Shown piece by piece: positions 7,644-31,878 of a stretch of DNA of 32,000 bases (position 1 is its first letter; each line of letters starts with the position of its first letter). The notes under the pieces are model-generated. The model searched no databases. It saw only the letters and a list, made by a program, of their open reading frames with translations, and had not been told where the DNA came from. Source of the stretch: Puniceicoccaceae bacterium Marseille-Q1082 (GTDB lineage: Bacteria > Verrucomicrobiota > Verrucomicrobiia > Opitutales > Intestinicryptomonadaceae); the NCBI GenBank assembly GCA_904424815.1, contig CAJGBI010000002.1, forward strand, positions 610,206-642,205, given 5' to 3'. The position numbers were made by a program, and so were the translations under genes.

Positions 7644-8339
7644 ATGGGGCTCATAGAATTGAAGGACATCCGCAAGACCTATTTCATGGGCGACATAAAG
7701 CTGCCCGTGCTCAAAGGCATAACGATGTCCGTGGAGAAGGGCGACATGGTTGCGCTCACCGGCGTGTCGGGCTCGGGCAAGAGCACTCTCATGAACATTC
7801 TCGGGTGCCTTGACAGGCCGACTTCGGGCGAATACTGGCTCGACGGCGAGGAAATATCGCGCCTTTCCAATGACGGCCGCGCCGACGTGCGCAACCGCAA
7901 AATCGGGTTCGTATTCCAAAACTTCAACCTGCTGCCGCGCACCTCCGCGCTCGAAAACGTGATAATGCCGCTCGGCTACACGGCGAGCCACCTCTCGGAA
8001 AAGCAGATGCTCGAGCGCGGCAAGCGGATGCTCGAGCGCGTCGGGCTCGCCGACAGAATGGACCACGAACCCTCGCGGCTCTCGGGCGGGCAGCAGCAGA
8101 GGGTCGCGATAGCGCGGGCGCTGGTCAACAACCCCAGCATACTTTTCGCCGACGAGCCCACCGGCAACCTCGACACGAAAATGAGCGAGGAAATCCTGCG
8201 CATATTCAACGAAATCAACTCGTCCGAGGGCGTGACGATAGTGCTCGTCACGCACGAAATGGACGTCGCCAACAGCGCAAAGCGCATAGTGCGCCTCGTG
8301 GACGGGGAAATAGCAAGCGATGCCGTTATAAGAAAATGA
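7644..8339 (+). CDS. ABC transporter ATP-binding protein, MacB/LolD-type (stand-alone ATPase)
   Basis: ATG at 7644 with AGGAGG at 7631-7636. Walker A GVSGSGKST, signature LSGGQQQRVAIARAL, Walker B ILFADEPTGNLD. The track start at 7437 overlaps the adaptor gene in another frame. Confidence 0.92.
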   Translation: MGLIELKDIRKTYFMGDIKLPVLKGITMSVEKGDMVALTGVSGSGKSTLMNILGCLDRPTSGEYWLDGEEISRLSNDGRADVRNRKIGFVFQNFNLLPRTSALENVIMPLGYTASHLSEKQMLERGKRMLERVGLADRMDHEPSRLSGGQQQRVAIARALVNNPSILFADEPTGNLDTKMSEEILRIFNEINSSEGVTIVLVTHEMDVANSAKRIVRLVDGEIASDAVIRK

Positions 8340-9688
8340 AGAGATTCCGCGTATTGAAATGGGCTCTCAAATCCATAGCCCGCAACCCCACCCGCACGTT
8401 TCTGACGACCCTCGGGATAATCATAGGCATAGCGGCGGTAATCGCGGTCATAGAAATCGGCGCCGGCGCGCAGGTGTCGCTTGAGAACAACTTTTCCGAA
8501 ATGGGCGTCAACACAATCCGCGTGTGGCCCGGCCCCGTCACCAGAAGCGGCATAAACAGCGGCTCCGGATCTTGGGCGACGCTGACCGTGGCGGACACCC
8601 GCGCCATCATAAAGGAGTGCCCGAAAGTGACGGCGATCTCCCCGCAGATTTCGGTCAGGGGGCAGATCATCTACGGCAATAAGAATTGGCGGCCGTTCAG
8701 CATAAGCGGCGGCAACGAGGACTTTTTGGAAATATCGAGCTGGAAAGTGGAGGACGGCATTCCGATTTCCGCCGCCCACGTGGCGAGGGCGGCAAAAGTG
8801 TGCCTCGTCGGGCAGACGATAGTGCGCGAGCTCTACGACGGCGCCAATCCGGTGGGGAAGGACTTGCGCATACAAAACGTCGTCTTCAAAGTAATCGGCG
8901 TCTTGAAGTCGAGGGGCGCCAACATGATGGGCATGGACATGGACGACTGCGTGATACTGCCGTGGACGACCATGAAGGCGCGGCTGAAAGGCGCGGGGCA
9001 GACGTCGCTGAGCGCGGTCGGAACCACCACGGACACGTCCACCACCACGACCACTTCCGCCTCCGACGTTTACACGAGCGGCGTGAGCCTCTATCCGCAG
9101 GCGTACAATACCATTCCTCCCGTGAGGTTTTCCAACATAGACAGCATGATAATGTCCGTCGCCCACCCCGACGACATCGCCGAGACCATGGAGAAAGTCC
9201 GCGAAGTTCTGCGCGAAACCCACAAGCTCGGCGACGCGGACGACGACTTCCGCATACGCTCCTTCGCGGAGTTTGCGGACATGCTCAAAAAGCAGACCGA
9301 GAGCGTGGCGAACCTGCTCATGTGCGTGGCGTTCATATCGCTTCTCGTCGGGGGGATAGGCATAATGAACATAATGCTCGTATCCGTCACGGAGCGCACG
9401 CGCGAGATAGGCCTGCGCATGGCGGTCGGCGCGCGCGCGCGCGACATTTTGCAGCAGTTTCTGGTCGAGTCGATAGTCATTTGCATACTCGGCGGGATAA
9501 TAGGGATTGCGGCCGGCCACGGGCTCTCGGTTTTCATGGCCGCAAAAATGGGCTGGCACACGGCGATATCGTACTTTGCGATATGCCTTTCCGTGGGGGT
9601 TTCGGCGCTCGTGGGCGTCGTGTTCGGATATTATCCCGCGTGGAAGGCGGCGCGCCTCGACCCGATAGAGGCTCTCAGATATGAATGA
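8336..9688 (+). CDS. ABC transporter permease, MacB-type (periplasmic core domain plus FtsX-like C-terminal TM module)
   Basis: 450 aa with an N-terminal TM, a large periplasmic domain and an FtsX-type region (GIGIMNIMLVSVTERTREIGLRMAVGARARDIL...YPAWKAARLDPIEALRYE). ATGA overlap with the ATPase gene. Confidence 0.9.
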   Translation: MKRFRVLKWALKSIARNPTRTFLTTLGIIIGIAAVIAVIEIGAGAQVSLENNFSEMGVNTIRVWPGPVTRSGINSGSGSWATLTVADTRAIIKECPKVTAISPQISVRGQIIYGNKNWRPFSISGGNEDFLEISSWKVEDGIPISAAHVARAAKVCLVGQTIVRELYDGANPVGKDLRIQNVVFKVIGVLKSRGANMMGMDMDDCVILPWTTMKARLKGAGQTSLSAVGTTTDTSTTTTTSASDVYTSGVSLYPQAYNTIPPVRFSNIDSMIMSVAHPDDIAETMEKVREVLRETHKLGDADDDFRIRSFAEFADMLKKQTESVANLLMCVAFISLLVGGIGIMNIMLVSVTERTREIGLRMAVGARARDILQQFLVESIVICILGGIIGIAAGHGLSVFMAAKMGWHTAISYFAICLSVGVSALVGVVFGYYPAWKAARLDPIEALRYE

Positions 9689-18779: not shown

Positions 18780-20039
18780 ATGAAATTATTTGCGGAAAAA
18801 GACACGCCGTTTCTTCTTTGCAAGTCCGACAGAATATTGGTGTTCATAATGTTCTTTTCGTACTTCTTTTTCTACGGGCTGCTGAACCTAAACTTCTTTC
18901 TGGAAATTCCCACGGGCATACCGTCGGGGCTGATGAGGCTCACGACTTTCGGGCTCGCCGGATTTTTCGTTTTGAAAGACTTTTCAAACGGCGAGTACCC
19001 GAGAATGACGGCTTCCATAATCTGCCTCGGGGTGTTTTTGCTGTATTACTTCTGCGTGTTCGTCGTGGACGAAAACGTTTTCGGGGCAAATTTCGACATG
19101 TCCACCGGCAGTTCGATGCAGAGGGGCAAACTGGAGGTGGCATACCTGTTTTTCATATCGGCGCTCTCGTACTTCCTGATGTTTTTCGCCGGCCGCAGGC
19201 GCATGGCGTACGTGCTCGCAAACCCGTCCCTCGTCTACATTCCGTCGCTGCTTTCGGTGCTGATAATCATCCTTACCAACATAAGGGCGTTCGGCACCAT
19301 GGACCTCTACCAGACATACCTCTACGACTTCGGCGACGTCAGGCGCGCGGCGATAATCGGTCCGGTGATGAACCTCATAATGGTTTCCCCATACCTCATG
19401 TTCTTTTCGAGAAACAAGCTGTGCAACTTTTTCTGGGGGCCCCTCGGCTGCGCCGCCGCCCTCGCGTGCGTGCTCATCAGCGACAGCCGCACGACTATCG
19501 TCACGATGTTCCTCGTATTGGCGTTTTATGCGGTGGTCTCAATCCGCCAGATATATTCCACGGTCTACGCGATCGTGGTATATGCGGCGGGGGCTGCGGT
19601 GTTCATACCGTATCTTGTGATGTCAAAGGCATTTGAGAGGTTTGCGAATCTCGAAAACATTTTGGACTACAACCTTAAGGCGGACGACCAGCTCTCGCGC
19701 ATAGGGCTTATAAAGGACGGCCTTTCGCAGTTTCTCGACAGCCCGATTATCGGCGGGCACATCTATCTCATAGGCGGGGGATATTCGCATTGCACGCCGG
19801 TTACCATCATGTATTCTACGGGGCTAGTTGGGCTTTCCCTGATATTGGTCGCCGTCGGCGGCATAATAAGGGGTGCGTTCGCGATAAGGGAGATTTTCCG
19901 CGAAAAGTGCATCTGGATTTTCGCCCTCGCGGTGGTGGACATCTGCGGGATGATGATAAACGGCGACACCATGGCGTTTTTCTGCGGCAGCTTTTCCGCG
20001 CTTCTTATGGCAAACGCATTCGCCGCCGACCGCAGGTAG
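18780..20039 (+). CDS. Wzy_C-family polytopic membrane protein (O-antigen polymerase candidate)
   Basis: 419 aa and very hydrophobic. SDSRTTIVTMFLVLAF, then the periplasmic-loop pattern QLSRIGLIKDGLSQFLDSPIIGG...YSHCTPVTIMYSTGLVGL (R...P.GG....H....G..G). GGGAAGG lies before the ATG. Visibly lower GC than the neighbouring genes. Confidence 0.7.
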   Translation: MKLFAEKDTPFLLCKSDRILVFIMFFSYFFFYGLLNLNFFLEIPTGIPSGLMRLTTFGLAGFFVLKDFSNGEYPRMTASIICLGVFLLYYFCVFVVDENVFGANFDMSTGSSMQRGKLEVAYLFFISALSYFLMFFAGRRRMAYVLANPSLVYIPSLLSVLIIILTNIRAFGTMDLYQTYLYDFGDVRRAAIIGPVMNLIMVSPYLMFFSRNKLCNFFWGPLGCAAALACVLISDSRTTIVTMFLVLAFYAVVSIRQIYSTVYAIVVYAAGAAVFIPYLVMSKAFERFANLENILDYNLKADDQLSRIGLIKDGLSQFLDSPIIGGHIYLIGGGYSHCTPVTIMYSTGLVGLSLILVAVGGIIRGAFAIREIFREKCIWIFALAVVDICGMMINGDTMAFFCGSFSALLMANAFAADRR

Positions 20040-21025: not shown

Positions 21026-22273
21026 TTATTTTGCGCGGAATTCCCTGCCGCGAATTATGAAGAGCCTCTGCGTGAGTAGCGCGTATTCCGCCAGCACAGC
21101 GACGGCGGCGACGGAATATACGGAGATCGCGCCGCAGAAGTACAACCCGAATACGAGGCAGACGTAAAATACCGAAGTCCACACGGAGGTTTTTATGACG
21201 ATGGAGTTCGACTTTATCGCGCCTATGAGCGGGAAGCCGAGCAGTATTGCCGGAATGGTCGCGTAGGATTTGAGCATTATTATGCGCATCGCGTCTATTA
21301 TCTCGCGCGAGGGCGTGTTGTAGAAGAGGTCTATTATCAGCGGCGCAAACGCGATGGCGATTGTCGCGAAAACCGCGCTCGCTGCCGACGCCGCGAAAAA
21401 TATTTTCCAGAAAAGCCCCAGGTTTTTCCGCTTTATCATGTACGGGTACATGGCAATCTGTATGGGCTGGATTACGGCGTTGTAGGCGTCCACGAGCTTT
21501 CGGGCGGCGGAATAGACGCCGGTCGCCGCGTTGCCGCCCACCAGCCCGAGCAGGAATGTTCCCGACTCCGCTTGCAGCGTATTGCAGAAGTTTACGAGCG
21601 CGAACGGCGAGCTCCCGCGTATGTGTTTCCAAATCTGCCCGATCCCAGCGAATCTGAACGCCATTCCGAATTTTATGTGCGCCACGGCTATGCCTATTGC
21701 GCCGCTGAGCAGGCTGCCGAGCGAGTAGCAGAGCGGGGGGATCCAGACGTCTTCGGGGCCCCTCACGACGAAGAACATCGGCACCATCGTGAGCGTGCGC
21801 GCCGAGAGCGTGATGTAGGTTATGAACTTCATCTTCTCCACCGCCTGGAAAAACCACGAAGGGAAGAGCGCCTCCCCCACTACTATGCCGAAGTAGAGAA
21901 AGTAAACTTCGCGGTGGGCGTGGAAGGCCTCGAAGCGGAAGACTATCGCCGCCATGGCGGCGAACGCGGCGGCGGCGAAGGCGAGCTTTGCGGAAATGAC
22001 CGACCAGAACGCCTCGCGCGTCTTTTGCGCGTCGGAGATATTGGAAGCTATGTAGTGGGTCGTGTAGAAATTGAATCCGAATTGCGTGAACGCCATGAAG
22101 TACCCTATGAACGCCTGCGCGAAGTACACCAGCCCGAACATTTCCACCCCGAGCGTCCTGAACAGGAACGGAATGAGAATCAGCGGCACGATGTAGTCGA
22201 ACCCCTTTATGGCCGACAGGCTCAAAAGGTTTTTGAACAGGGGGGAAGCGAGTGTGCGGCGCAGGATTCGCAT
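21026..22273 (-). CDS. wzx: Oligosaccharide flippase (Wzx, MOP superfamily)
   Basis: 415 aa with ~12 hydrophobic segments. The N-terminus LFKNLLSLSAIKGFDYIVPLILIPFLFRTLGVEMFGLVYFAQAF is typical of the Polysacc_synt family. Confidence 0.85.
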   Translation of the reverse strand: MRILRRTLASPLFKNLLSLSAIKGFDYIVPLILIPFLFRTLGVEMFGLVYFAQAFIGYFMAFTQFGFNFYTTHYIASNISDAQKTREAFWSVISAKLAFAAAAFAAMAAIVFRFEAFHAHREVYFLYFGIVVGEALFPSWFFQAVEKMKFITYITLSARTLTMVPMFFVVRGPEDVWIPPLCYSLGSLLSGAIGIAVAHIKFGMAFRFAGIGQIWKHIRGSSPFALVNFCNTLQAESGTFLLGLVGGNAATGVYSAARKLVDAYNAVIQPIQIAMYPYMIKRKNLGLFWKIFFAASAASAVFATIAIAFAPLIIDLFYNTPSREIIDAMRIIMLKSYATIPAILLGFPLIGAIKSNSIVIKTSVWTSVFYVCLVFGLYFCGAISVYSVAAVAVLAEYALLTQRLFIIRGREFRAK

Positions 22274-22276
22274 CTG

Positions 22277-23497
22277 TTATTTTTGCAGCCTTGCGCTGAA
22301 TTTTTTCAGGGCGTTTTTGGCGGGGGCGGGCATGGGGACGCGCCTTATGGCGAACGACAGCGCCCTTTCAAAAAGCGACGGCATTTTGACGAATTTTTTC
22401 AGGGCGGGCAGCATTCCCTCCTCCCGCGCGAATTTCAAAAATTCCGCACGCGGCGCGCCGGACGGCTCGCGCACGCCTTTTAGCGGTCCGACGCATTCGT
22501 AGGCGGGCGCTATTTCAAATTCCTTCGTTTTCCCGAGGGCGGAGATTTGCGGCAGGAGCTTTGCCGCCCTTTCCGTATTGGCGCAAACGAGCGAGCAGCC
22601 GCGCCCCGCGCTGAACTCCTCCGAGAGCCTTTCAATTCCCCAGAAGTCGGCTATCGTAAAGTCGGCAACGCGCTCTTTGCCCGAAAAGCGGCACGAGCCG
22701 CATGACTCCCTTGTGAAAAGCCCCTTTACGAATCCCCAGTAAAGTATGTCGTGGTCTATTTTTTTCTTGGAGCCGTCGGCGAACCTGAATTCGGCAAACG
22801 AGCTGCGGTCGGTTCCGAATCTCCTGCCCTTGTTTCTGAAAGAGTATCCGGAGATTTTTTTGCCGTAGAGTTTCTCGCAGCCGCGCAGGTAGCTTTCGGT
22901 CAGCTTTGAATTGCTCACGCCGTGGCAGGCGACGTCCACCGTCAGCAGGGTTTCATAGTCCTTTTTCAGAAACAGTTTCAGCGCCGCGATTTGGCACGCC
23001 GTCCCCGAGAAGAGAACCTTTTTTCCGTCGCGCAGTCTGGCGCGGGTTTTCAAAAAAATCCCCGACGTGCGGCTTTGCAGGTATTTCGACTTTCTAAACT
23101 TCCCGATTTCGGAGAGGCTTTCAATTTCGGAGTGGGCGGCCTCCGAGCGCGACGCGGACTCCACGCCGAAAATCGCGCATTTTTCGTCCCCGCCGCAAAA
23201 CGCCTGCGCTATCGCGGTGAACGCCCCTCCCGACGAGCTTTCGGCAAAAACCTTTTCGTCGTTGTGGACAAAGGCGTGAGTTGAGATTATCCCCGAGAAG
23301 AGCCCGCGCGAATTTTCCCCCGCTACCGGACAGACGGAGGCGCACATCCCGCAGTCAACGCAGGCGGAGGCGTCGAGTTCGGGGTATTCAAACCCGTCCG
23401 CGTCGGGGGCCATCGCGAGCGCGGACTTTGGGCAGACTTCCGCGCAGGCCGCGCATCCGCAGCAGTCTTTGCGCTCTATTCCGGTTTTGAGCTTCAT
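22277..23497 (-). CDS. FrhB-like (coenzyme F420 hydrogenase/dehydrogenase beta subunit family) Fe-S protein
   Basis: ATG at 23497. Two ferredoxin-type motifs near the N-terminus (CCGCAACAEVCP and CVDCGMCASVCP), followed by an FrhB-like body (SSSGGAFTAIA...FSGTACQIAAL...ACHGV). The track ORF extends spuriously to 24094. Confidence 0.85.
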   Translation of the reverse strand: MKLKTGIERKDCCGCAACAEVCPKSALAMAPDADGFEYPELDASACVDCGMCASVCPVAGENSRGLFSGIISTHAFVHNDEKVFAESSSGGAFTAIAQAFCGGDEKCAIFGVESASRSEAAHSEIESLSEIGKFRKSKYLQSRTSGIFLKTRARLRDGKKVLFSGTACQIAALKLFLKKDYETLLTVDVACHGVSNSKLTESYLRGCEKLYGKKISGYSFRNKGRRFGTDRSSFAEFRFADGSKKKIDHDILYWGFVKGLFTRESCGSCRFSGKERVADFTIADFWGIERLSEEFSAGRGCSLVCANTERAAKLLPQISALGKTKEFEIAPAYECVGPLKGVREPSGAPRAEFLKFAREEGMLPALKKFVKMPSLFERALSFAIRRVPMPAPAKNALKKFSARLQK

Positions 23498-24618
23498 TTT
23501 TTCAGTTCCGTGCCGAGGGCGCATTTCAAATAGTTTTGGGATTTCGCGAGCTCTTCGGCAAATTTGGCGTCCGCGCGCGAATAGTCCAAATCTCCGGATG
23601 CCGGCGAAGGGTTTGAGGCGGAAATTATCCGGTCCGGCGGAAGTCCGAACCTCTCGAAAATGTCGTCTATGCGCGTGTCGAAAGGGTTGCTTTTTATCGC
23701 GTATACGTCCTTTCTGAAATGCAGCCCGAAGGCGGCGCCGTGGAAGGAACTCGCGACGACCGCCTTCGCGTTGACGAGGAGGTTCAGGAACTCGCGCGGG
23801 CCCGCGTCGAATACGGTTTTGTCTACGCCAAGCCCGTAGTTGTCGGCGATTCCGAGCGCGATGGAGGCCGCCGGCAGTCCGTACCGCTTTTTTACCGCGC
23901 GCAGGGTCTGCCGCGCGAGCTTCCTGTCGGGCAGCACGAGATACGCGAAAATATAGTCTCCCTTTAATATGGGCTCCGCATCCATTTGGCTTTTCCACCA
24001 TTCGGGCGAGTGGAGAAATATCGGGTCGAGGACCGCTTCGACGGGCTCTTGGAGTATTTCGGAAAGTCTTTCGGCGCCCGATTTCTCGCGGCACGACAAA
24101 AAGTCTATTCCCGAGATTATCCGCCGCATGTTTTCCGCCTCGTCAGCCGATATCTGCGATGTCCCCACGCTCGGGGCGTAGGCGACGGTGCGCTTTCCTA
24201 ATCCTTTTGCAAAGCACAGCCCGCGGGCGGGGACGATGTACCTGGGGTGCCAGATGGCGTCGCTGCCCGCAACGTATGCGTCGAAAACCGGAGGGTCGCG
24301 GTTTATGGCGTCTTCGCCGACGTATTCGCGCGTGAGGCGCCAGCCGCTCCTGAATTGCGCGAACCTCTCGCGCGACTTTTCGATGTTGCGCGCATTGGCA
24401 AATCTTGCGAGGTTTCCGAGAATCCGCCTCGGCAGCTTTGAAAGCCCGTCGACTTTCCAGTCGTATTTTGAATTGTATATGCGGCGCAGCCCCGGGAGCC
24501 AATAGTTTATCACGCTCGTTTTTGCGCCGAGCTCGTTCAGGCGGGCGTACAGTGAAAACGCCTGCAAGTCCGAGCCGAAATTGCGGAGGTTGTGCTGTGT
24601 TATAAGGCCTACGTCCAT
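23494..24618 (-). CDS. Polysaccharide pyruvyl transferase family protein
   Basis: ATG at 24618. MDVGLITQHNLRNFGSDLQAFSLYARLNELG and VASSFHGAAFGLHF are typical of the PS_pyruv_trans (CsaB/WcaK-like) family. ATGA overlap with the FrhB-like gene at 23494-23497. Confidence 0.85.
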   Translation of the reverse strand: MDVGLITQHNLRNFGSDLQAFSLYARLNELGAKTSVINYWLPGLRRIYNSKYDWKVDGLSKLPRRILGNLARFANARNIEKSRERFAQFRSGWRLTREYVGEDAINRDPPVFDAYVAGSDAIWHPRYIVPARGLCFAKGLGKRTVAYAPSVGTSQISADEAENMRRIISGIDFLSCREKSGAERLSEILQEPVEAVLDPIFLHSPEWWKSQMDAEPILKGDYIFAYLVLPDRKLARQTLRAVKKRYGLPAASIALGIADNYGLGVDKTVFDAGPREFLNLLVNAKAVVASSFHGAAFGLHFRKDVYAIKSNPFDTRIDDIFERFGLPPDRIISASNPSPASGDLDYSRADAKFAEELAKSQNYLKCALGTELKK

Positions 24619-24657
24619 GCCGAGAGCGCAGTAAATTAAAGCCGCAGTATATTTGCG

Positions 24658-24690
24658 CGCGCGAAAGAATGTCGAGCATTCTTTTGCGCG
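24658..24690. promoter_or_regulatory. 33-nt near-perfect palindrome in a divergent intergenic region (operator or RNA hairpin candidate)
   Basis: CGCGCGAAAGAATG-TCGAG-CATTCTTTTGCGCG has 14 paired positions (13 Watson-Crick plus one G-T) around a 5-nt centre. It lies 40 nt from the pyruvyl transferase ATG and 58 nt from the ligase-like ATG. Confidence 0.4.
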
Positions 24691-24747
24691 GCGCGGGCGG
24701 CAGCATTTTTGTTGCAATGCGGGGGCGCCGTAAAATAGAAAAGGGCA

Positions 24748-26106
24748 ATGGATGCACTCGTGAAAAACCGCTTTGCGCGGCGCGGCGCGCTGTTTGCGCT
24801 ATGCGCGCAGACCGTATTGGCGACATGGCTGCTTTCGGGCACGCGGCCGGAATTTCTGCTGCCGATGTTCGCGGCCGCCCTTATCGCGTTCGCATTTTGC
24901 GTCGCGGGGGGAATGTTCGCGCGCGACGGGGTTTTTGCCAAAACCCTCGCGTTCGCGTCGCTCTTTTTCATAATAGTTTGCGCCGTCCAATATTTCAACC
25001 CGTTCGCGGAGTATGTGGTTCGCGAAAAGTTTTCGTTTCTTGCGGGGCGCGCGCACGTCGAATGGCTGCCCGTTTCCGTCCGCGCGGAGTTTGCGCAGGG
25101 CAACGCGCTCTCGTCGCTGTGCGTTTTGCTCGCGGCCTTCCTGACCACGCTTTCGGCGGCGGCGTTTTCCTCCGACCGGCGGGCGATGCGCGGGCTGCTT
25201 GCGCTGTTTGCAGTCAATACCCTTTTGATGGGTGCGTTCGCCGTGTGGCAGCAGGCGGAGAAAATCCCAATGCCTTACGGGATTTTCCACACGCGGGCGG
25301 GCTTCTACGGGAGTTTCTTTCTTTCCAACGCGGCGGGGGCGTACCTGAATATGGGGGTTGCGGCGCTCGCCGCATGCGCCGCCGCGTTTGCGCGGCGAGG
25401 AGCTGCTGGCGGGGCGTTTGCGGCGTTTTGCGCGGCGGGAGCGGCGTTCGCCTCGTACGCTTCGGTCCGCTCGGGAAGCCAGGGGGCGGCGATAATATGC
25501 GCGCTCTTGTGGTGCGCGATTTTCATTGCCGCCGCATGGCGCGGACTCGCCTGCGCTTTCGGCGAAAAAATTTCTGCGGCCGCGCTTTCGCTCTTCCTGC
25601 TCGCTGCGGGGGCGGCCGCGGCATTTTGCGCGGCGGACGTTTTAGAGCCGTCGGATTTGCTCTCCGACCGCCAGATTGAGGAATCGGCAGTATCGCGCAT
25701 TGCGATATACAAGTCCGCCGTTCCGCTCGCCAAAGAGCGTCCCGTGTGGGGCGCGGGCGGCGAGTGTTCGAGGTATATTCTTCCGATGATCCGCAAGCCA
25801 GGGGCGTCGTCGGTTGCGGAGGCCCCGAGCAGGCCCCATTCGGACGCGCTCGAATACGTTTTGGATTTCGGCATTTCGGGTGCGGCGGTTTTGGCGGCGT
25901 GCGGCGCGGCGTGGGCGGCGCAGATATGGAAAAACAGGCGCGCGCTCGGCTTCGCAAACGCCGTGTGCGCGGCGGGCGCGCTGTCGTGCCTCGCCCACGG
26001 AACTTTCGACATGGAGTTGCACATACCGTCCACAATGATCGCTTTCGGGCTGATGTGCGTGTTCTCATTTTCTCCGTTCAACAGGGGAGGCCGCCGTGAA
26101 GTATAA
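24748..26106 (+). CDS. O-antigen ligase family (Wzy_C domain) membrane protein, WaaL-like
   Basis: 452 aa and polytopic. Periplasmic-loop motif SRIAIYKSAVPLAKERPVWGAGG...RPHSDALEYVLDFGISGAAVL (R...P.G.G....H...LE...E.G..G). Confidence 0.75.
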   Translation: MDALVKNRFARRGALFALCAQTVLATWLLSGTRPEFLLPMFAAALIAFAFCVAGGMFARDGVFAKTLAFASLFFIIVCAVQYFNPFAEYVVREKFSFLAGRAHVEWLPVSVRAEFAQGNALSSLCVLLAAFLTTLSAAAFSSDRRAMRGLLALFAVNTLLMGAFAVWQQAEKIPMPYGIFHTRAGFYGSFFLSNAAGAYLNMGVAALAACAAAFARRGAAGGAFAAFCAAGAAFASYASVRSGSQGAAIICALLWCAIFIAAAWRGLACAFGEKISAAALSLFLLAAGAAAAFCAADVLEPSDLLSDRQIEESAVSRIAIYKSAVPLAKERPVWGAGGECSRYILPMIRKPGASSVAEAPSRPHSDALEYVLDFGISGAAVLAACGAAWAAQIWKNRRALGFANAVCAAGALSCLAHGTFDMELHIPSTMIAFGLMCVFSFSPFNRGGRREV

Positions 26107-27007
26107 ACTTTTGCTTCTGCTTGCCGCGCTCTCGGCGGCGGGAATATGCGTCGACTTTTTCGGCGGAAAAGACGCGAACCTCGAAGTCGCGCGGAGGATT
26201 TACGCCGGCGCCGAAACCGATTCGGGGCCGCTATACCGCAACTGCGCCGTCGGGCTCGAAAAGGCGAAGGCGGCGGTTGACGCCTTGAAGCGCGGGGACT
26301 CCGCCGCGTTCGACAGGCTGATGTTCCAGTCGTACGTAAACTTCCAGTCGTCGAATAAGACCGCCGCGGAGCCGTATCTCATAGAGGCTGTAGATTTGCT
26401 GGCGGGCGCGGGGCAGCCGAAGTGGCTGGCGGAGTTCATAAAGCTCGGAAACGTCTCGGTGGACTTCGCGATATGCGTTTACGGGTGCGCGGGAAGTCCG
26501 GGGATAATGGGGGCGTTCACGTACGATTTCATTGAAAAAAATTTTAAGGGGACATCCGCGCGTTCGTGGCTCATATGGGCAAAAAACGACTACCGAAAGA
26601 TTTCTGCAGAAAAAGCCGAGCGCGACCTGATATACGCGGGCGTGACGTTCGGGCTCCCGCAGAAAAATATGGAGTTGTCCAAGTGGAAGATTTTTTCCCG
26701 CCCGCTCGCGGCGTATCTGTCCAAGCTGAAAGGGAGGGAGGACTTGTACAAAGTTTTCAGGGAAAAGTCGCTTTCTCCCGACACCCTCCATGAAGTCCGC
26801 GCGGGGCTTTTCGAGTATTGCGAGTACGCCGCCAAAATTTTCGCCCGCTGCGGCGACCCCGCCGCGTCCGTCGCCCTTTTGGAGAGCCTGCCGGACGGGC
26901 GGAGAAAAAACCTTTCGATAAAGCGGACTATCCGCGGCATTCTGAAAAGCGCCGGCGGGCGGGAGGAAATCGAAAAATCCGAAATCGGGCGGATTCTGGC
27001 GGAGTAG
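26096..27007 (+). CDS. Hypothetical exported or membrane-anchored protein of unknown function
   Basis: GTG at 26096 is preceded by GGGGAGG (26084-26090) and overlaps the ligase-like gene by 11 nt. Hydrophobic N-terminus MKYKLLLLLAALSAAGICV. I recognised no motif in the remaining ~280 aa. Confidence 0.6.
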   Translation: MKYKLLLLLAALSAAGICVDFFGGKDANLEVARRIYAGAETDSGPLYRNCAVGLEKAKAAVDALKRGDSAAFDRLMFQSYVNFQSSNKTAAEPYLIEAVDLLAGAGQPKWLAEFIKLGNVSVDFAICVYGCAGSPGIMGAFTYDFIEKNFKGTSARSWLIWAKNDYRKISAEKAERDLIYAGVTFGLPQKNMELSKWKIFSRPLAAYLSKLKGREDLYKVFREKSLSPDTLHEVRAGLFEYCEYAAKIFARCGDPAASVALLESLPDGRRKNLSIKRTIRGILKSAGGREEIEKSEIGRILAE

Positions 27008-27014
27008 GCGCGGC

Positions 27015-27632
27015 TCAGCTCCTGCCGCCCTTGGAATACTTTTCCACGGTATTTTTGTTTACCGGCGTGGAGTCCACGCAGAATACGACTTTCACGAGCG
27101 TCAGAAAAAATATTTTCGCGTCGAGCGCGAAGGAAATTTTGTCGACGTATTCGAGGTCTTTGGCGATTTTGCGGTCTACGGTGATCTCGTTGCGCCCCGA
27201 GACTTGCGCCAGGCCGCTCAGCCCGGGCAGGACGTCGTGGCGGCGCATGGATTTTTCGTCCAGGGCGTCCAGCTCGTAGTCCAGAAACGGCCGCGGCCCG
27301 ATAAACGACATGTCGCCTTTGAGTACGTTGAAAAACTGAGGGATTTCGTCGAGGCTCGTCTTGCGCAGGAACGCGCCGACTTTCGTTATTCGCCGCTCGT
27401 CGGGCAGCAGCTTTCCGTCCGCGCCGCGCTCGAAGGACATTGTCCTGAATTTGTACAGGTTGAATATCTTTCCGCGCAATCCCGCGCGCCTTTGGGATAT
27501 CACGGCGGGCGAGCCCATGGAAACCCTTACCACAGCCCATATGAGCGCGAATGCCGGCGACATCAGGATTATCAGCAGAGCCGAACCCGCGGCGTCCAGG
27601 AGCCTTTTTATGCAGTCTTTGTAAAGTTTCAT
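27015..27632 (-). CDS. Small monotopic phosphoglycosyl transferase (bacterial sugar transferase, PglC/WbaP-C-terminal type), the initiating enzyme
   Basis: ATG at 27632. KRLLDAAGSALLIILMSPAFAL, QRRAGLRGKIFNLYKFRTM, SLDEIPQFFNVLKGDMSFIGPRP and PGLSGLAQVSGRN are hallmark Bac_transf motifs. Confidence 0.9.
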   Translation of the reverse strand: MKLYKDCIKRLLDAAGSALLIILMSPAFALIWAVVRVSMGSPAVISQRRAGLRGKIFNLYKFRTMSFERGADGKLLPDERRITKVGAFLRKTSLDEIPQFFNVLKGDMSFIGPRPFLDYELDALDEKSMRRHDVLPGLSGLAQVSGRNEITVDRKIAKDLEYVDKISFALDAKIFFLTLVKVVFCVDSTPVNKNTVEKYSKGGRS

Positions 27633-27744: not shown

Positions 27745-29079
27745 TCAAGATATTTTGCTCGGGCCTCCCGAAGCGTGGTCGGCTCCGCAGAGAGGAGTTT
27801 TCCCCGAGGAAATTTCGGGCGCGCGGTTTTCTCCGGAGCGCAGAAGGCCGGCGAGCGCGGCGCCCGCATAAATCCAGACGATGGGCATCATGGGGTAGTG
27901 GTACCTGTCGGTCACCATGAACGGAAGCGTGAGGGCGACCACGAGAACCGGCGCCGCCGCCAGGGCGTTGCGGGCGCGCGGCGGGCTTTTGAGGTTTTTT
28001 GCCAGATACAGAGCAAACAGCGCGAGAGCCGCATAGTACGCGAGGCTCTTGACAAAAAGCCCCGCGCAGTATTTTACCGCGAACGCCTTGTCAGACAAAA
28101 TTTTTTCCCTTATCGACGACAGGCCAGTGCCTTTTTCGAAACGCTCGCTCCATGTGTCGAACCCGAGCAAAACCGCGGTTTTCAGAGGCAGCTGCGAAAG
28201 GTACGCGGCGGGGTTTTCGGCAATCCATCCGGCGGCGGCGTCCCTGAACAGGGCATCTTTTTGGGCGAAGTTCAAGCCGCCGAAACCGGCCGGAATTTTT
28301 TTGCGGTAAAATTCGTCCCTTTCAAAGCCGAACCCGACGAGGCCGTTGGCGAACTTGTTCGCGCTTCCTGCGAGGTTGAGGCCGGAGGTTGCGGACTGGA
28401 AGGCGAATATGCCGCATGAGGATTTCGATGCGAAGCCTATCGCCGCCGCCGCGAGCGCCGCCGAGGCGCATAGCGCCGCAATTCGCGCGAAGGCGTATTT
28501 GCGCTCCAATGCGGCGTACAGGGCTATTCCCATGAAGTACGCAATCGCAAGCGGCCTTATCCAGTTGCCGAGCGCGAGCATAACCCCCGCGAGCGCGAAG
28601 TTCGCCCACTTGGATTTCGGCAGAACCGCCGCCGCCACGGCAGCCGACATTGAGAACGCGAACGGGACTTCCGAAAAATACCCTATGGGCAGAAACCAGT
28701 TGCTGTACGCCGCGGCGTAGAGGAGCGCGGAGCACGCGGCGGCGGTTCTGCCGAAAAATTTTTTCGCGACGAAGAACACGGAGGCGAGAATGCCAGCCGA
28801 CATCAGCAGGTTTATCCAGCCGAATCCTCCGAACGTCCCGAAAATCCTGCGGTGCAGGACGAGCATGTTTACGTATCCCGGGGCAAAGAGGAAGCTGTCG
28901 CCGAGGTTTGTTTCCGACGGATACCAGCCGCCCGATTCCATTGCGCGCTCCGCGCAATAGAGGTAGGTTTTTTGGTCGTCGGACGGCGCGAATCCCGCGT
29001 TTTGCAGGAGCAGTAAAACCTGAGCGGCAAACAGCGCGGCGACGGCCGCCAAGGCGATTTTCCCGATGTGGTCGCGCAT
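27745..29079 (-). CDS. GT-C fold glycosyltransferase (ArnT/PMT-like, GT39/GT83-type), predicted polyprenyl-phosphate-sugar dependent
   Basis: ATG at 29079. 444 aa with many TM segments. The first loop carries the acidic pair and the GT-C-like pattern FAPSDDQKTYLYCAERAMESGGWYP. Confidence 0.72.
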   Translation of the reverse strand: MRDHIGKIALAAVAALFAAQVLLLLQNAGFAPSDDQKTYLYCAERAMESGGWYPSETNLGDSFLFAPGYVNMLVLHRRIFGTFGGFGWINLLMSAGILASVFFVAKKFFGRTAAACSALLYAAAYSNWFLPIGYFSEVPFAFSMSAAVAAAVLPKSKWANFALAGVMLALGNWIRPLAIAYFMGIALYAALERKYAFARIAALCASAALAAAAIGFASKSSCGIFAFQSATSGLNLAGSANKFANGLVGFGFERDEFYRKKIPAGFGGLNFAQKDALFRDAAAGWIAENPAAYLSQLPLKTAVLLGFDTWSERFEKGTGLSSIREKILSDKAFAVKYCAGLFVKSLAYYAALALFALYLAKNLKSPPRARNALAAAPVLVVALTLPFMVTDRYHYPMMPIVWIYAGAALAGLLRSGENRAPEISSGKTPLCGADHASGGPSKIS

Positions 29080-29080
29080 C

Positions 29081-30502
29081 TCAAAAGGGCTTTGCGAGCG
29101 CGAAGGCGGCCGCGAACGCCGCCAATAGCGCGTAGTTGGATTTCGTCTTGAACGCATACACCAGCGGGTCGGAGCTCACGAGCCCCCGCGCGGCGTCGCG
29201 CCAGATTTTCCACAGGAAAAACCCTATCGGAAGCGTTCCCAGCAAGAGCGCGTCCGGATTTTCGTAGTACGCCCTCGCCCCCCTCTGCGTGTAGACCGCA
29301 TACACCGCGACCGAGAGCGCGCAGGAGGCGATTCCCGCGGCGCGCGCGGCTTTGGCGTTCGCCCGCCCGTATCCGCGCGCGCGGGCGGTCTCGGCGCTCT
29401 CGGAGAGCTCGACGCACCTTTTGAGCAGAGCGAGCCCCAGAAACAGGAAGACCGAAAACGCGGAGAGCCAGAACGATATTTTGCAGTCTATGGCCTCTCC
29501 GCCGCCGAGAACGCGCAGATAGTAGAGGCACGCTAGAACCGCGACGTCCACGAATGCCACGCGCTTGAAGGCGAAGGAATACCCTATTGTTATTGCGGCG
29601 TAGGCGGCGAGCGCGAGAGCAAATTCCCGCGGGAGGGCGGCGGCCGCCGCCACCGCGGCGGCCGCGAGCGCGAGCATCAGCGCGATTCCCGCGGGTATGG
29701 GGAAGTCTCCCGAAGCGAACGGGCGGCTGCGCTTGCTGGGGTGCAGCCTGTCGGACTCGATGTCGAGCAGGTCGTTTAAAATATACGTCGCGGAGGCGCA
29801 GAAGCAAAACGCGAGAAACGCTGCGGCGGAGTTCAATGCGTCGCCTAAATTAAAATATCTGTGGCTCGAAATCAGGGCGACGAACACGAGCAGGTTTTTC
29901 GCCCACTGGTGCGCGCGGACGGCGCGAAGGGCGGCGGACGCCGAAAGCTCCGCGCCCCCGCCGATTCTTACGGTCTCTTTCCCCCCGAGCCTCCTGCGGA
30001 TTTTCTCCGCGAACTTTTCGCCGCCGACAACCGCGGCTGTCCGCGATTTCTCCCAGACCGGAATGTCGGATGGAGAGTCGCCCATATAGTCAAAGTTGCC
30101 GTCGCCGAAAATTTTTGAGCAGAGGGCGGCCTTGTTTTCGCCTTTGAGGTTGATGGTTTCGGAAGAGCCGTATACGCCGTCGAACAGCCCCGTCCGCGCC
30201 GCGATTTTCTCCGCGAGCTTTTCGTCGCACGCAGTGACGAGCCAGATTTTTGCGCCCGCCCTTTTGCGCTTTTTTATATAAGAGACCGCCGCCGGATTTA
30301 CCGGAAGCCTTTCGGCGAATTTCCCGAATTTTTCCGCCAGCCTTCTTTTTGCGAATGCCCGCCCCCTTGCGAGCATAAGCGGGACGAGCGCCAGGTAGAA
30401 CGGGTTTTTGCGCAGGGCGCGCGCGACGAGCTCCCAAAGGGAATCCGAGCGAATCAGGGTTCCGTCGAGGTCTACGCACAAGTTGTCGGCGCTGCGGGGC
30501 AT
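29081..30502 (-). CDS. Fusion protein: N-terminal HAD-family phosphatase plus C-terminal UbiA-family polyprenyl-phosphate phosphoribosyltransferase-like domain
   Basis: HAD motifs are VDLDGTLI (DxDxT), LVTAC and GDSPSD. The UbiA part has RAHQWAKNLLVF, NDLLDIESDRLHPSKRSRPFASG (NDxxDxxxD plus KRxRP) and about 8 TM segments. Its stop is 1 nt from the GT-C start. Confidence 0.85.
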   Translation of the reverse strand: MPRSADNLCVDLDGTLIRSDSLWELVARALRKNPFYLALVPLMLARGRAFAKRRLAEKFGKFAERLPVNPAAVSYIKKRKRAGAKIWLVTACDEKLAEKIAARTGLFDGVYGSSETINLKGENKAALCSKIFGDGNFDYMGDSPSDIPVWEKSRTAAVVGGEKFAEKIRRRLGGKETVRIGGGAELSASAALRAVRAHQWAKNLLVFVALISSHRYFNLGDALNSAAAFLAFCFCASATYILNDLLDIESDRLHPSKRSRPFASGDFPIPAGIALMLALAAAAVAAAAALPREFALALAAYAAITIGYSFAFKRVAFVDVAVLACLYYLRVLGGGEAIDCKISFWLSAFSVFLFLGLALLKRCVELSESAETARARGYGRANAKAARAAGIASCALSVAVYAVYTQRGARAYYENPDALLLGTLPIGFFLWKIWRDAARGLVSSDPLVYAFKTKSNYALLAAFAAAFALAKPF

Positions 30503-30651
30503 TGCGGGGCAGTGTATAAGGCGCCAAGATAAGCGGCGCGGGAGGCCTTTGGCAAATAAAAACGGTTTTGCGCGCGCCGCGCGATTTTTTGTTTTACGGC
30601 GGCTTGACTTTTCCGATTCGGGTTATAAACAGAGAGAATTTTTTTACGGAT

Positions 30652-30795
30652 ATGGAAACGAACAGCGAAACTAAAAAGGAAAGCCGCGAGTGCGGCAAGG
30701 GCGAGGCTATCCGCCGCGGCGCCAACATCCAGAAGTACGTGGACAACTACGACAGGATTTTCCGCAAAGGCTCTTCGAGGGCCAAATCCAAGTAG
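30652..30795 (+). CDS. Small basic hypothetical protein (47 aa)
   Basis: ATG at 30652 gives METNSETKKESRECGKGEAIRRGANIQKYVDNYDRIFRKGSSRAKSK. Third codon positions are GC-rich, as in the neighbouring genes. TTGACT (30604-30609) and TATAAA (30624-30629) lie upstream but only 14 nt apart. No clear SD sequence. Confidence 0.3.
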   Translation: METNSETKKESRECGKGEAIRRGANIQKYVDNYDRIFRKGSSRAKSK

Positions 30796-30882
30796 CATTC
30801 CGAACGCGCGCTTTTGCCCGTCCGATGATGCGCTTTGGAGCGGCGGGTAGAGGGGGAATTTCTGCGCCGGCAGCCGTCGGCG

Positions 30883-31878
30883 TCAAAAGCTTTCGGGCCT
30901 CCAAAGCAGCTTCCGGAGCATTCTAAACGCCCGTATGAGACCGCGCAAAAACTCTCCGGCAATTGGTACGGAATAGGCTTTCGACATCATTCCGGCGGTT
31001 TCCCCCGCGGTGAGCGAGGCGAGGAATTCCCGCTTGCGGCGGTCGTCCGCGCCCGCGAACTTTATGTGGCGCGCGAGCCATTCCGCGTATGAAATGCGGT
31101 ACGCGAACCTGTGCGCGCGCGAGCCGTTCATGAGGATTTCCTTGAACAGTCGGTTGCGGTTGACGATTTCCTCCCGCGTGGGTCCGTTTGACGTATTTTT
31201 GGAATCCTGCCCCGCGTGTATGCGGTACACGAAGAGGTTTTTGTCGGCGAGCACGACGGCCTTTCCGCCGCCCGTCGCGTCTATCATTACGGGGGTGTCG
31301 CCGATTTTTCCGTACACGTTGGGGCGGTTGCGCGCGCGCAAGTCGGCGGTTCTGTATATCGCCGACGAGTACGACGCCCGCCCGTCGCAGAATATGTAGG
31401 CGGCGAAGTCCTCGCGGCTTTCAAAGGCGAAGGCTTTTCTGGACGCGCTTTTCCATTCGACGCGCCCGCCGCTTTCGACGCGCATGTACGAATAGTTTGA
31501 GGCGAGCACCGCGACGTTCCCGAAGGAGTTTATCGCAGCCACGGCGCATTCGACGTACTCCGGATTGGCGAGGTCGTCGTCGTGCATGAACATCGCGTAC
31601 TTGCGGCTTGCGCCTGCGAGGGCGGCGTGGAAGTTGGCGTCGGCGCCGATGTTTTTCGGGTGGCGGACGTAGCGGAATTCTCCCTCAAAGCGCGGCCGCA
31701 TCTCCTCCACGGTTTCCGCCGTTCCGTCGGAGCTCGCGTTGTCGTACACGGACACGGAGAATCCCCGCGCGGTCTGGGCGAGCAGGCTTTCGAGCGCCTG
31801 GCGAAGGAGGGGCGCCCTGTTAAAAGTCAAAACGCAGACTTCCAGGTCGCTGGCGGTTATTTTGTCCGGAGTGTCCAT
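30883..31878 (-). CDS. Glycosyltransferase family 2 (GT-A fold)
   Basis: VCVLTFNRAPLLRQALESLLAQT...VSVYDNASSDGT...FMHDDD are the classic GT2 N-terminal motifs. No obvious TM segments. Confidence 0.88.
   Translation of the reverse strand: MDTPDKITASDLEVCVLTFNRAPLLRQALESLLAQTARGFSVSVYDNASSDGTAETVEEMRPRFEGEFRYVRHPKNIGADANFHAALAGASRKYAMFMHDDDLANPEYVECAVAAINSFGNVAVLASNYSYMRVESGGRVEWKSASRKAFAFESREDFAAYIFCDGRASYSSAIYRTADLRARNRPNVYGKIGDTPVMIDATGGGKAVVLADKNLFVYRIHAGQDSKNTSNGPTREEIVNRNRLFKEILMNGSRAHRFAYRISYAEWLARHIKFAGADDRRKREFLASLTAGETAGMMSKAYSVPIAGEFLRGLIRAFRMLRKLLWRPESF

Follow-up and report, generated by a model that had tools for sequence, protein, structure and literature searches.

A stretch of 32,000 nucleotides from Puniceicoccaceae bacterium Marseille-Q1082 (contig CAJGBI010000002.1; the window in what follows) encodes a HAD phosphatase fused to a UbiA-family membrane domain, and directly downstream a second membrane protein of 444 amino acids. 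By analogy with the extracytoplasmic glycosylation system of Citrobacter youngae O1, we propose that these two coupled genes probably form the donor-synthesis and transfer arms of a pentofuranose glycosylation pathway of the same kind. A sequence-only reading of the window had picked out the pair as a compact module for decorating a surface glycan; most of its individual claims hold up in the analyses below.

The idea of a fused-HAD donor synthase working with a GT-C glycosyltransferase was published in 2024 by Kelly, Duong, Nothof, Lowary and Whitfield in PNAS (PMC11127046), and for this reason the window leaves the understanding of the mechanism unchanged. The authors describe a ‘three-component system’ that consists of the synthase ORF15, the small transporter ORF14 (called MATE or SMR, and proposed to be the flippase) and the GT-C enzyme ORF12. 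ORF15 joins an N-terminal HAD domain (PRP, ‘phosphoribosyl-phosphatase’) to a C-terminal Rv3806c-like domain (PPPRS). It converts phosphoribosyl pyrophosphate (PRPP) and farnesyl phosphate to farnesyl-phosphate-ribofuranose, which was identified by mass spectrometry and nuclear magnetic resonance; its HAD mutant D18A accumulates farnesyl-phosphate-ribose-5-phosphate, and N247, D248, D251 and D255 are required for activity (PMC11127046). ORF12 founded the CAZy family GT136, and its carbohydrate-binding module (CBM, residues 503–652) binds the O-antigen backbone. Epimerases set the sugar: the short-chain dehydrogenase/reductase (SDR) ORF13 leads to xylofuranose and DprE1/DprE2 homologues lead to arabinofuranose (PMC11127046). 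What is new in the window is the host lineage, the Wzx/Wzy context and the lack of a flippase gene in cis, together with a family of compact GT-C proteins, possibly separate from GT136. The window thus extends an experimentally defined pathway for alpha-pentofuranose side chains to human-gut Verrucomicrobiota (the CAG-312/Opitutales lineage), in which a predicted ribofuranose decoration could affect recognition by the immune system or by phages.

The domain architecture claimed for the fusion protein is borne out by Pfam, which places a HAD domain (PF12710) at residues 11–149 (E = 7e-12) and a UbiA domain (PF01040) at residues 209–436 (E = 4e-18). All of the motifs quoted in the sequence-only reading (DLDGTL, GDSPSD, RAHQWAKNLLVF and NDLLDIESDRLHPSKRSRPFASG) are found in the protein. 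The NCBIfam model NF006088 (‘UbiA family prenyltransferase’, PRK08238) recognizes the fusion with 487.8 bits against a cut-off of 351, and the alignment runs end to end, from residues 5–470 of the protein to positions 11–479 of the 482 in the model. The next-best models are three for decaprenyl-phosphate phosphoribosyltransferase (DPPRS), at 112–146 bits, whereas models for quinone, heme, chlorophyll and archaeal-lipid prenyltransferases score 15–45 bits. Searching the PDB with phmmer gives the same ranking: the DPPRS of Mycobacterium tuberculosis (Rv3806c, 8J8J) is found at E = 5e-26 and the 4-hydroxybenzoate octaprenyltransferase UbiA (4OD4) comes second at E = 6e-4. The segment NDLLDIESDRLHPSKRSRPFASG of the fusion aligns with NDVRDVEADREHPTKRFRPIAAG of Rv3806c.

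Catalytic residues are retained in both halves. Across 19 diverse homologues, D11, D13, K124, D146, N243, D244, D247, D251, R252, K361, R362 and E365 are invariant, and T90 is almost invariant. The HAD motifs comprise motif I (D11-L-D13-G-T), T90, K124 and G141-D142...D146, so that the catalytic aspartates D11, D13 and D146, whose loss would have spoken against a phosphatase, are intact. In the UbiA domain, the motif N243-D244-xx-D247-xxx-D251-R252 is encoded at 29747–29776, and K361-R362-xx-E365 lies in a later cytoplasmic loop. Judged by motif and spacing rather than by an alignment to ORF15, N243, D244, D247 and D251 seem to match ORF15 residues N247, D248, D251 and D255; R362 and E365 similarly resemble ORF15 R366 and E369 by motif only. 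The fusion is 37% identical over its full length to the ORF15 homologue of Rhizobium sp. CCGE531 (plasmid CP032687.1; PMC11127046, Fig. S12). This locus is among the candidates that the authors found with ORF15 as the seed (PMC11127046), and our search with the window fusion retrieves the same gene.

An AlphaFold2 model of the fusion built on the 19 homologues has high confidence (pLDDT, 89.4; pTM, 0.85) and consists of a Rossmann-like N-terminal domain and nine long helices. The best Foldseek match is 8J8J (target-normalized TM-score, 0.81; root mean square deviation, 3.4 Å; E = 1e-10); other UbiA folds score 0.62–0.74. The N-terminal domain has a fold that matches HAD enzymes of the phosphoserine-phosphatase type; a phmmer search with the HAD domain alone found nothing. 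By models, PDB ranking and predicted fold, the UbiA domain is therefore of the Rv3806c type, as had been proposed, and does not group with quinone or heme prenyltransferases. We infer from these sequence features and from ORF15 that the fusion is a bifunctional polyprenyl-phosphate phosphoribosyltransferase and phosphoribose 5-phosphatase. The suggestion that the fused HAD domain supplies the dephosphorylation step is well placed: its motifs are intact, and the HAD domain of ORF15 performs this step (PMC11127046).

The 444-amino-acid protein opens at the ATG at 29079 and ends at 27745. A longer reading of 470 amino acids from 29157 is possible, but the shorter start is preferred because the N termini of homologues are conserved and because independent gene calls on six metagenome contigs agree with it. 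The proposed assignment to the GT-C enzymes is supported by a structural model, in which a first helix (residues 5–26) is followed by loop helices at 34–49 and 67–80 and by about 11 further long helices. Eighteen of the first 20 Foldseek matches in the PDB are GT-C enzymes or a GT-C-like GPI-transamidase subunit; AglB, STT3, GPI mannosyltransferase I and ArnT are among them, and ALG9, Pmt4 and ALG3 follow at lower ranks. Asp35 of the window protein (encoded at 28975–28977) sits in the first extracytoplasmic loop, immediately behind helix 1, which is the position of the catalytic acid in GT-C enzymes. Distant members of the family share invariant Q20, D35, P54, N71 and R175, with Y39 and R392 nearly invariant, and D391-R392-Y393-H394 is conserved in the family. 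The ‘SDD...GGWYP’ pattern that had been described as typical of ArnT/PMT-like enzymes is not a recognized family signature. Similarity to PMT_2 (PF13231) is instead visible across the wider family, in which 17 of 27 sampled members match at E ≤ 0.01 (best, 3.4e-8); the relationship is therefore at the level of the superfamily. The model and the family-level evidence together suggest, with moderate confidence, that the protein has a GT-C fold.

The two genes are closely joined. On the minus strand the sequence reads ...AAG CCC TTT TGA G ATG CGC GAC..., with the stop codon of the fusion at 29083–29081, one spacer base at 29080 and the ATG at 29079, exactly the spacing of 1 nucleotide that had been reported. 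The same spacing is repeated in a relative with 58% identity from the same kind of cluster (L092; 6581–7999 and then 8001–9302). In both loci the pair sits on one strand between a gene for a family 2 glycosyltransferase (GT2) and the gene for the initiating phosphoglycosyl transferase (PGT). Both proteins also recur at 92–98% identity across many samples, in clusters that exceed 100 members, and these are therefore real genes and not chance open reading frames (ORFs). Exact or near-exact copies from many human-gut assemblies group into clusters with 134 and 222 members, of which the named ones are ‘Verrucomicrobia bacterium CAG:312_58_20’ and ‘Verrucomicrobiota bacterium’; a cluster at 92% identity carries the name ‘Opitutales bacterium’.

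Members of the GT-C family are found beside HAD–UbiA genes in several orders and contexts. In one locus, from another lineage (L090:4518-9278), a full-length fusion and then the GT-C gene directly follow genes for EpsI and exosortase (EpsH), a layout that hints at pentofuranose decoration linked to a PEP-CTERM/exosortase system. In another, the order is reversed and the GT-C gene precedes the fusion beside a melibiase gene. A third (L114:3546-6266) has separate HAD (169 amino acids) and UbiA (288 amino acids) genes followed by the GT-C gene among housekeeping genes, which reflects either a split fusion or a frameshift in the assembly. Family members also adjoin fusions in loci from Alpha-, Gamma- and Zetaproteobacteria (L074, at E = 2e-32 with a gap of 13 nucleotides, L072, L066, L036 and L034). 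Recurrent pairing across arrangements is the usual signature of functional linkage. Here at least five independent arrangements from several phyla, including the reversed and split forms, show the pairing, which supports functional coupling of the two genes but does not prove that this donor is used throughout the family.

The identity of the sugar would depend on epimerases. We examined about 42 kb, comprising the window in six frames and contigs that reach 10 kb past its end, with profiles built from neighbouring genes of related fusions. No true DprE1-like or DprE2-like protein was found in this region, in agreement with the claim that the window has none. One DprE1-like hit at 28872–29849 (minus strand) is an artefact of ORFs extended out of frame into the fusion gene; it aligns only to positions 24–197 of the profile, whereas the true DprE1 region is at positions 209–641. 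An SDR of 293 amino acids past the window end is also unlikely to be an ORF13-like epimerase, as it lies inside a block of RfbF, RfbG and RfbH genes and has no similarity to the epimerase candidate of the Rhizobium locus. Because neither a DprE1/DprE2-like nor an ORF13-like epimerase is encoded nearby, ribofuranose is most likely the sugar, as far as gene content can predict it.

We hypothesize that the pathway proceeds in four steps. The UbiA domain would transfer ribose-5-phosphate from PRPP to a polyprenyl phosphate, presumably undecaprenyl phosphate, at the cytoplasmic face of the membrane. The fused HAD domain would then remove the 5-phosphate to give polyprenyl-phosphate-beta-D-ribofuranose, as the biochemistry of ORF15 suggests. 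The lipid-linked sugar would be flipped across the membrane by a protein that is not encoded in the locus. Last, on the outer face, the 444-amino-acid protein may attach the pentofuranose to an acceptor, a role suggested by its fold, by Asp35 and by the gene pairing. Genomic context points to the Wzx/Wzy-built glycan of the locus as the most likely acceptor.

The closest known systems are those of C. youngae O1 and O2. They have in common with the window the N-terminal HAD and Rv3806c-like UbiA domains, with catalytic motifs that are equivalent by position and spacing, and a GT-C-fold partner beside the synthase in a lipopolysaccharide or O-antigen-type locus; as in C. youngae O1, the lack of an epimerase implies ribofuranose. 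In contrast to the C. youngae loci, the window locus has no gene for a small transporter, its GT-C protein of 444 amino acids lacks the C-terminal CBM of ORF12, and its glycan is predicted to be Wzx/Wzy-dependent rather than ABC-transporter-dependent. The hosts also differ, an enterobacterium in one case and a gut member of the Verrucomicrobiota in the other. The pathway of M. tuberculosis (Rv3806c, Rv3807c, DprE1/DprE2 and Emb/Aft) shares PRPP-dependent formation of polyprenyl-phosphate-ribose-5-phosphate, dephosphorylation and use by GT-C enzymes outside the membrane. Its phosphatase is a separate protein unrelated to the HAD family (PMC11127046), whereas that of the window is a fused HAD domain. 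DprE1/DprE2 convert the mycobacterial donor to arabinofuranose, a conversion that is not expected from the window locus, which lacks them; and the large Emb/Aft enzymes and decaprenyl carrier contrast with a single compact GT-C protein and, presumably, undecaprenyl.

More distant parallels exist with the Gtr systems (GtrA, GtrB and Gtr*) of Shigella and Salmonella, in which a sugar is also loaded onto a lipid monophosphate in the cytoplasm and a GT-C enzyme modifies a Wzx/Wzy O antigen in the periplasm. The Gtr synthase is, however, a GT2 enzyme that uses UDP-glucose, whereas the synthase of the window would be a UbiA protein that uses PRPP to supply a pentofuranose, and there is no GtrA homologue in the locus. 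ArnT/PMT_2 (PF13231) is the only sequence family detected for the 444-amino-acid protein, and ArnT is among its structure matches; the protein is shorter than ArnT, and its partner gene points to another donor.

Several findings weigh against the proposed pathway. Surface pentofuranose decoration is predicted for this organism from its genes alone. The 444-amino-acid protein matches PMT_2 at 17.4 bits (E = 0.005), below the gathering threshold of 26.1 bits; its model is of moderate confidence (pLDDT, 73.8; pTM, 0.79), and the Foldseek scores are modest (E from 6e-4; TM-scores of 0.34–0.47). Comparison by hhalign with the candidate GT-C of Rhizobium sp. CCGE531 (PMC11127046, Fig. S12) gave no similarity (probability, 0.15). 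Three GT-C family members have no UbiA gene beside them, and the family may therefore use other donors as well; in three other contexts the pair lies outside a polysaccharide locus, so that acceptors other than an O-antigen-type glycan are conceivable. Epimerase genes may be present elsewhere in the genome, as the search covered the 42 kb only. The published model requires a flippase, and our profiles found no SMR/EamA, GtrA or LPG_synthase_TM protein in the six frames of this region; a hydrophobicity scan of the window and the 10 kb beyond likewise found no small multi-transmembrane ORF. The description of the pair as a self-contained two-gene system thus goes beyond these data, although a flippase gene may be present elsewhere in the genome. 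One ORF of 108 amino acids upstream of the fusion (30472–30798, minus strand) was considered as a small membrane protein and rejected, as it has only two weak hydrophobic stretches, no gene-finder call and no cluster of homologues.

The alternative that survives best, although we consider it unlikely, keeps the machinery and changes the acceptor: the GT-C protein would decorate lipid A or core, a protein or another envelope polymer instead of the Wzx/Wzy glycan. Known targets of other GT-C enzymes include lipid A (ArnT) and pilin (the arabinofuranose system of Pseudomonas aeruginosa), the homologous pairs beside exosortase/EpsI, melibiase and housekeeping genes fit such a role, and the window protein lacks the module with which ORF12 engages the O-antigen backbone. 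The position of the pair between the GT2 and initiating PGT genes, on the same strand here and in the 58%-identity relative, argues instead for the glycan of the locus. So does its constancy while other parts of the cluster vary among strains.

Somewhat less probable is that the same machinery delivers a different sugar, with ribofuranose epimerized to arabinofuranose or xylofuranose before flipping by enzymes encoded elsewhere. To gauge this we clustered neighbouring ORFs from 80 loci (L007–L086) with related fusions of 36–41% identity, among the matches listed; the counts are approximate owing to crude ORF calling and partial loci, and those for flippase candidates refer to about 7 kb around the fusion. 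DprE1-like (FAD_binding_4) neighbours occur in 51 of these 80 listed loci, DprE2-like (adh_short) neighbours in 47 and both in 42, and arabinofuranose is probably the commonest outcome in the family. The published ORF12 accepts both ribofuranose and xylofuranose donors (PMC11127046), and our search reached only part of the genome. However, where epimerase genes are present they directly adjoin the fusion, and here there is none within about 29 kb on one side or 10 kb on the other. The sole free SDR nearby is the one in the RfbF/RfbG/RfbH block, unlike the Rhizobium epimerase candidate, and 24 of the 80 listed loci likewise have neither DprE-like gene.

The same survey bears on the flippase. 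GtrA-like proteins are encoded in 19 of the 80 listed loci, SMR/EamA-like proteins in 14 and LPG_synthase_TM proteins in 14, and any of the three in 43; absence of a flippase in cis is therefore common. The LPG_synthase_TM proteins (PF03706, the transmembrane or flippase part of MprF; representative, L020:8902-9888) could represent another class of flippase, acting on polyprenyl-phosphate-pentofuranose. In one protein of 792 amino acids (P0111), this domain is fused N-terminally to a HAD–UbiA protein. The terms ‘MprF’ and ‘lysyl’ do not occur in the main text of the 2024 report (PMC11127046). Separately, an amine-oxidase-like flavoprotein (PF01593; representative, L024:16244-17548) lies near fusions in 14 listed loci. 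On a short contig (L111:624-2126) its gene is flanked by those for GtrA and for a GT-C family member, and the flavoprotein may serve these systems as a further enzyme of sugar modification.

It is improbable that the adjacency of the two genes is incidental, with the 444-amino-acid protein being a PMT_2/ArnT-like enzyme for a hexose or aminoarabinose donor, or no glycosyltransferase at all, and the product of the fusion used elsewhere. The weak PMT_2 match, the failure to find a solved-structure relative by profile and the family members without a UbiA neighbour would fit this view; the 1-nucleotide gap and the pairing in at least five independent arrangements from several phyla do not, and nothing else in the locus is a candidate for using the lipid donor. 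The reading of the UbiA domain as an aromatic prenyltransferase of the quinone, heme or chlorophyll type, with a HAD domain unrelated to sugar chemistry, is effectively refuted by the profile scores, PDB ranking and best fold match given above and by the glycan-synthesis context, and the name ‘4-hydroxybenzoate polyprenyltransferase/phosphoserine phosphatase’ that some databases give to relatives is automatic.

The GT-C partner is part of a large and compact family. A word-based search found 28 relatives, whereas exhaustive searching with a profile retrieved 2,203 representative clusters at E ≤ 0.001, of which 157 reach E ≤ 1e-30. Lengths are 410–450 amino acids and matches full-length in almost all cases. 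A metagenome scan with a narrower alignment of the family recovered close gut relatives only, and the family profile found no relative among solved structures by sequence. The window protein has no C-terminal CBM: it ends about 30 residues past the last helix (394–414), in a structureless tail of low confidence. Membership of GT136 looks unlikely by comparison with a single proxy, the Rhizobium sp. CCGE531 candidate. As this candidate is unlike the 444-amino-acid protein and is itself without relatives in 80 further fusion loci, the GT-C partners of such synthases appear to be diverse. We tentatively raise the possibility, which we think is rather doubtful as a whole, that the compact, CBM-less and PMT_2-related family (about 410–450 amino acids; 157 clusters) comprises polyprenyl-phosphate-pentofuranose transferases distinct from GT136, which would form a minimal module of two genes with the synthase, work with no dedicated flippase and possibly act on acceptors other than O antigens. 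Such enzymes would be small candidates for glycoengineering and for CAZy family assignment. Two of the stand-alone family members (L088:8001-9308, 50% identical; L109:6001-7272, 31% identical) adjoin a ribosomal protein L28 gene, in two lineages.

Table 1 Features of the two-gene unit and of its surroundings in the window
Feature	Position	Strand	Evidence
HAD::UbiA fusion gene, 473 amino acids (stop codon 29081–29083 included)	29081..30502	-	Pfam, NCBIfam NF006088
N-terminal cytoplasmic HAD phosphatase domain, about residues 1–185 (predicted)	29948..30502	-	PF12710, TIGR01488 HAD-IB
C-terminal nine-helix UbiA domain, DPPRS (Rv3806c) type	29084..29938	-	phmmer against PDB, Foldseek
Junction TGA-G-ATG (fusion stop, spacer base, start of GT-C gene)	29077..29083	-	Sequence
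Compact GT-C-fold candidate, 444 amino acids, putative polyprenyl-P-pentofuranose:glycan transferase	27745..29079	-	AlphaFold2/Foldseek, PMT_2
Small PGT, 205 amino acids, initiating enzyme of the glycan pathway	27015..27632	-	PF02397 E 3e-56, TIGR03025 229 bits
Non-coding spacer upstream of the fusion gene, 380 nucleotides	30503..30882	-	
Wzx-type flippase (Polysacc_synt), context gene	21026..22273	-	PF01943 E 1e-39
Wzy_C-domain protein (polymerase or ligase), context gene	24748..26106	+	PF04932 E 1e-12
Second Wzy_C protein	18780-20039	+	

The surroundings are those of a Wzx/Wzy O-antigen-type locus, as had been recognized, with Wzx and two Wzy_C proteins in the window. The window opens with pst/phoU, an AraC regulator and MacAB–TolC genes, followed by genes for a GT9 heptosyltransferase, a HAD protein and an HldE-like kinase/adenylyltransferase, and by two GT4 enzymes and a UDP-GlcNAc 2-epimerase. 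Next come a Wzy_C protein, an acyltransferase and Wzx; an FrhB-like protein with a pyruvyl transferase, the other Wzy_C protein and a protein of 303 amino acids; and then the PGT, the 444-amino-acid protein, the fusion and a GT2 enzyme. The initiating PGT had been placed correctly downstream of the pair on the same strand, where it is identified by its Bac_transf domain. Its start is most likely the ATG at 27632, after an AT-rich spacer of 112 nucleotides, as judged from the sequence and from gene calls on metagenome contigs. The spacer upstream of the fusion gene is likely the promoter region of the two-gene unit. It contains one sigma-70-like match (30555..30526) at 9 of 12 consensus positions, of a consensus that may not be that of Verrucomicrobiota, and no Rfam family matched within it.

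Neither of the two Wzy_C proteins matches an NCBIfam model; presumably one is the polymerase and the other the O-antigen ligase. The 303-amino-acid protein (26096–27007, plus strand) has a hydrophobic N terminus, overlaps the end of a Wzy_C gene by 11 nucleotides and has no Pfam or NCBIfam match, and a gene of similar size (310 amino acids) occupies the same position in the related locus L092. At 22277–24717 (minus strand), a protein with two 4Fe–4S motifs and a C-terminal FrhB/FdhB domain is encoded directly downstream of, and overlapping, the polysaccharide pyruvyl transferase gene.

Past the window end the cluster continues with genes for a GT2 enzyme, a pyruvyl transferase, another GT2 enzyme, a thiamine pyrophosphate (TPP)-dependent enzyme, the 293-amino-acid SDR, RfbH, RfbG, RfbF and an MsbA-like exporter. 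RfbF, RfbG and RfbH (L001:245-6155, plus strand, in the same cluster as window positions 30883–31878) all exceed their equivalog cut-offs, and they are followed by the SDR and a TPP enzyme of the acetolactate-synthase type (591 amino acids). This layout suggests a CDP-3,6-dideoxyhexose route with TPP-dependent branching, which might give a yersiniose-like sugar. The cluster differs among samples of the same species (L001–L006), whereas the fusion and GT-C pair is constant. For example, L005 has a different Wzx/acyltransferase block and a shortened pyruvyl transferase, and L002 and L004 are without the pyruvyl transferase of 423 amino acids between the two GT2 genes.

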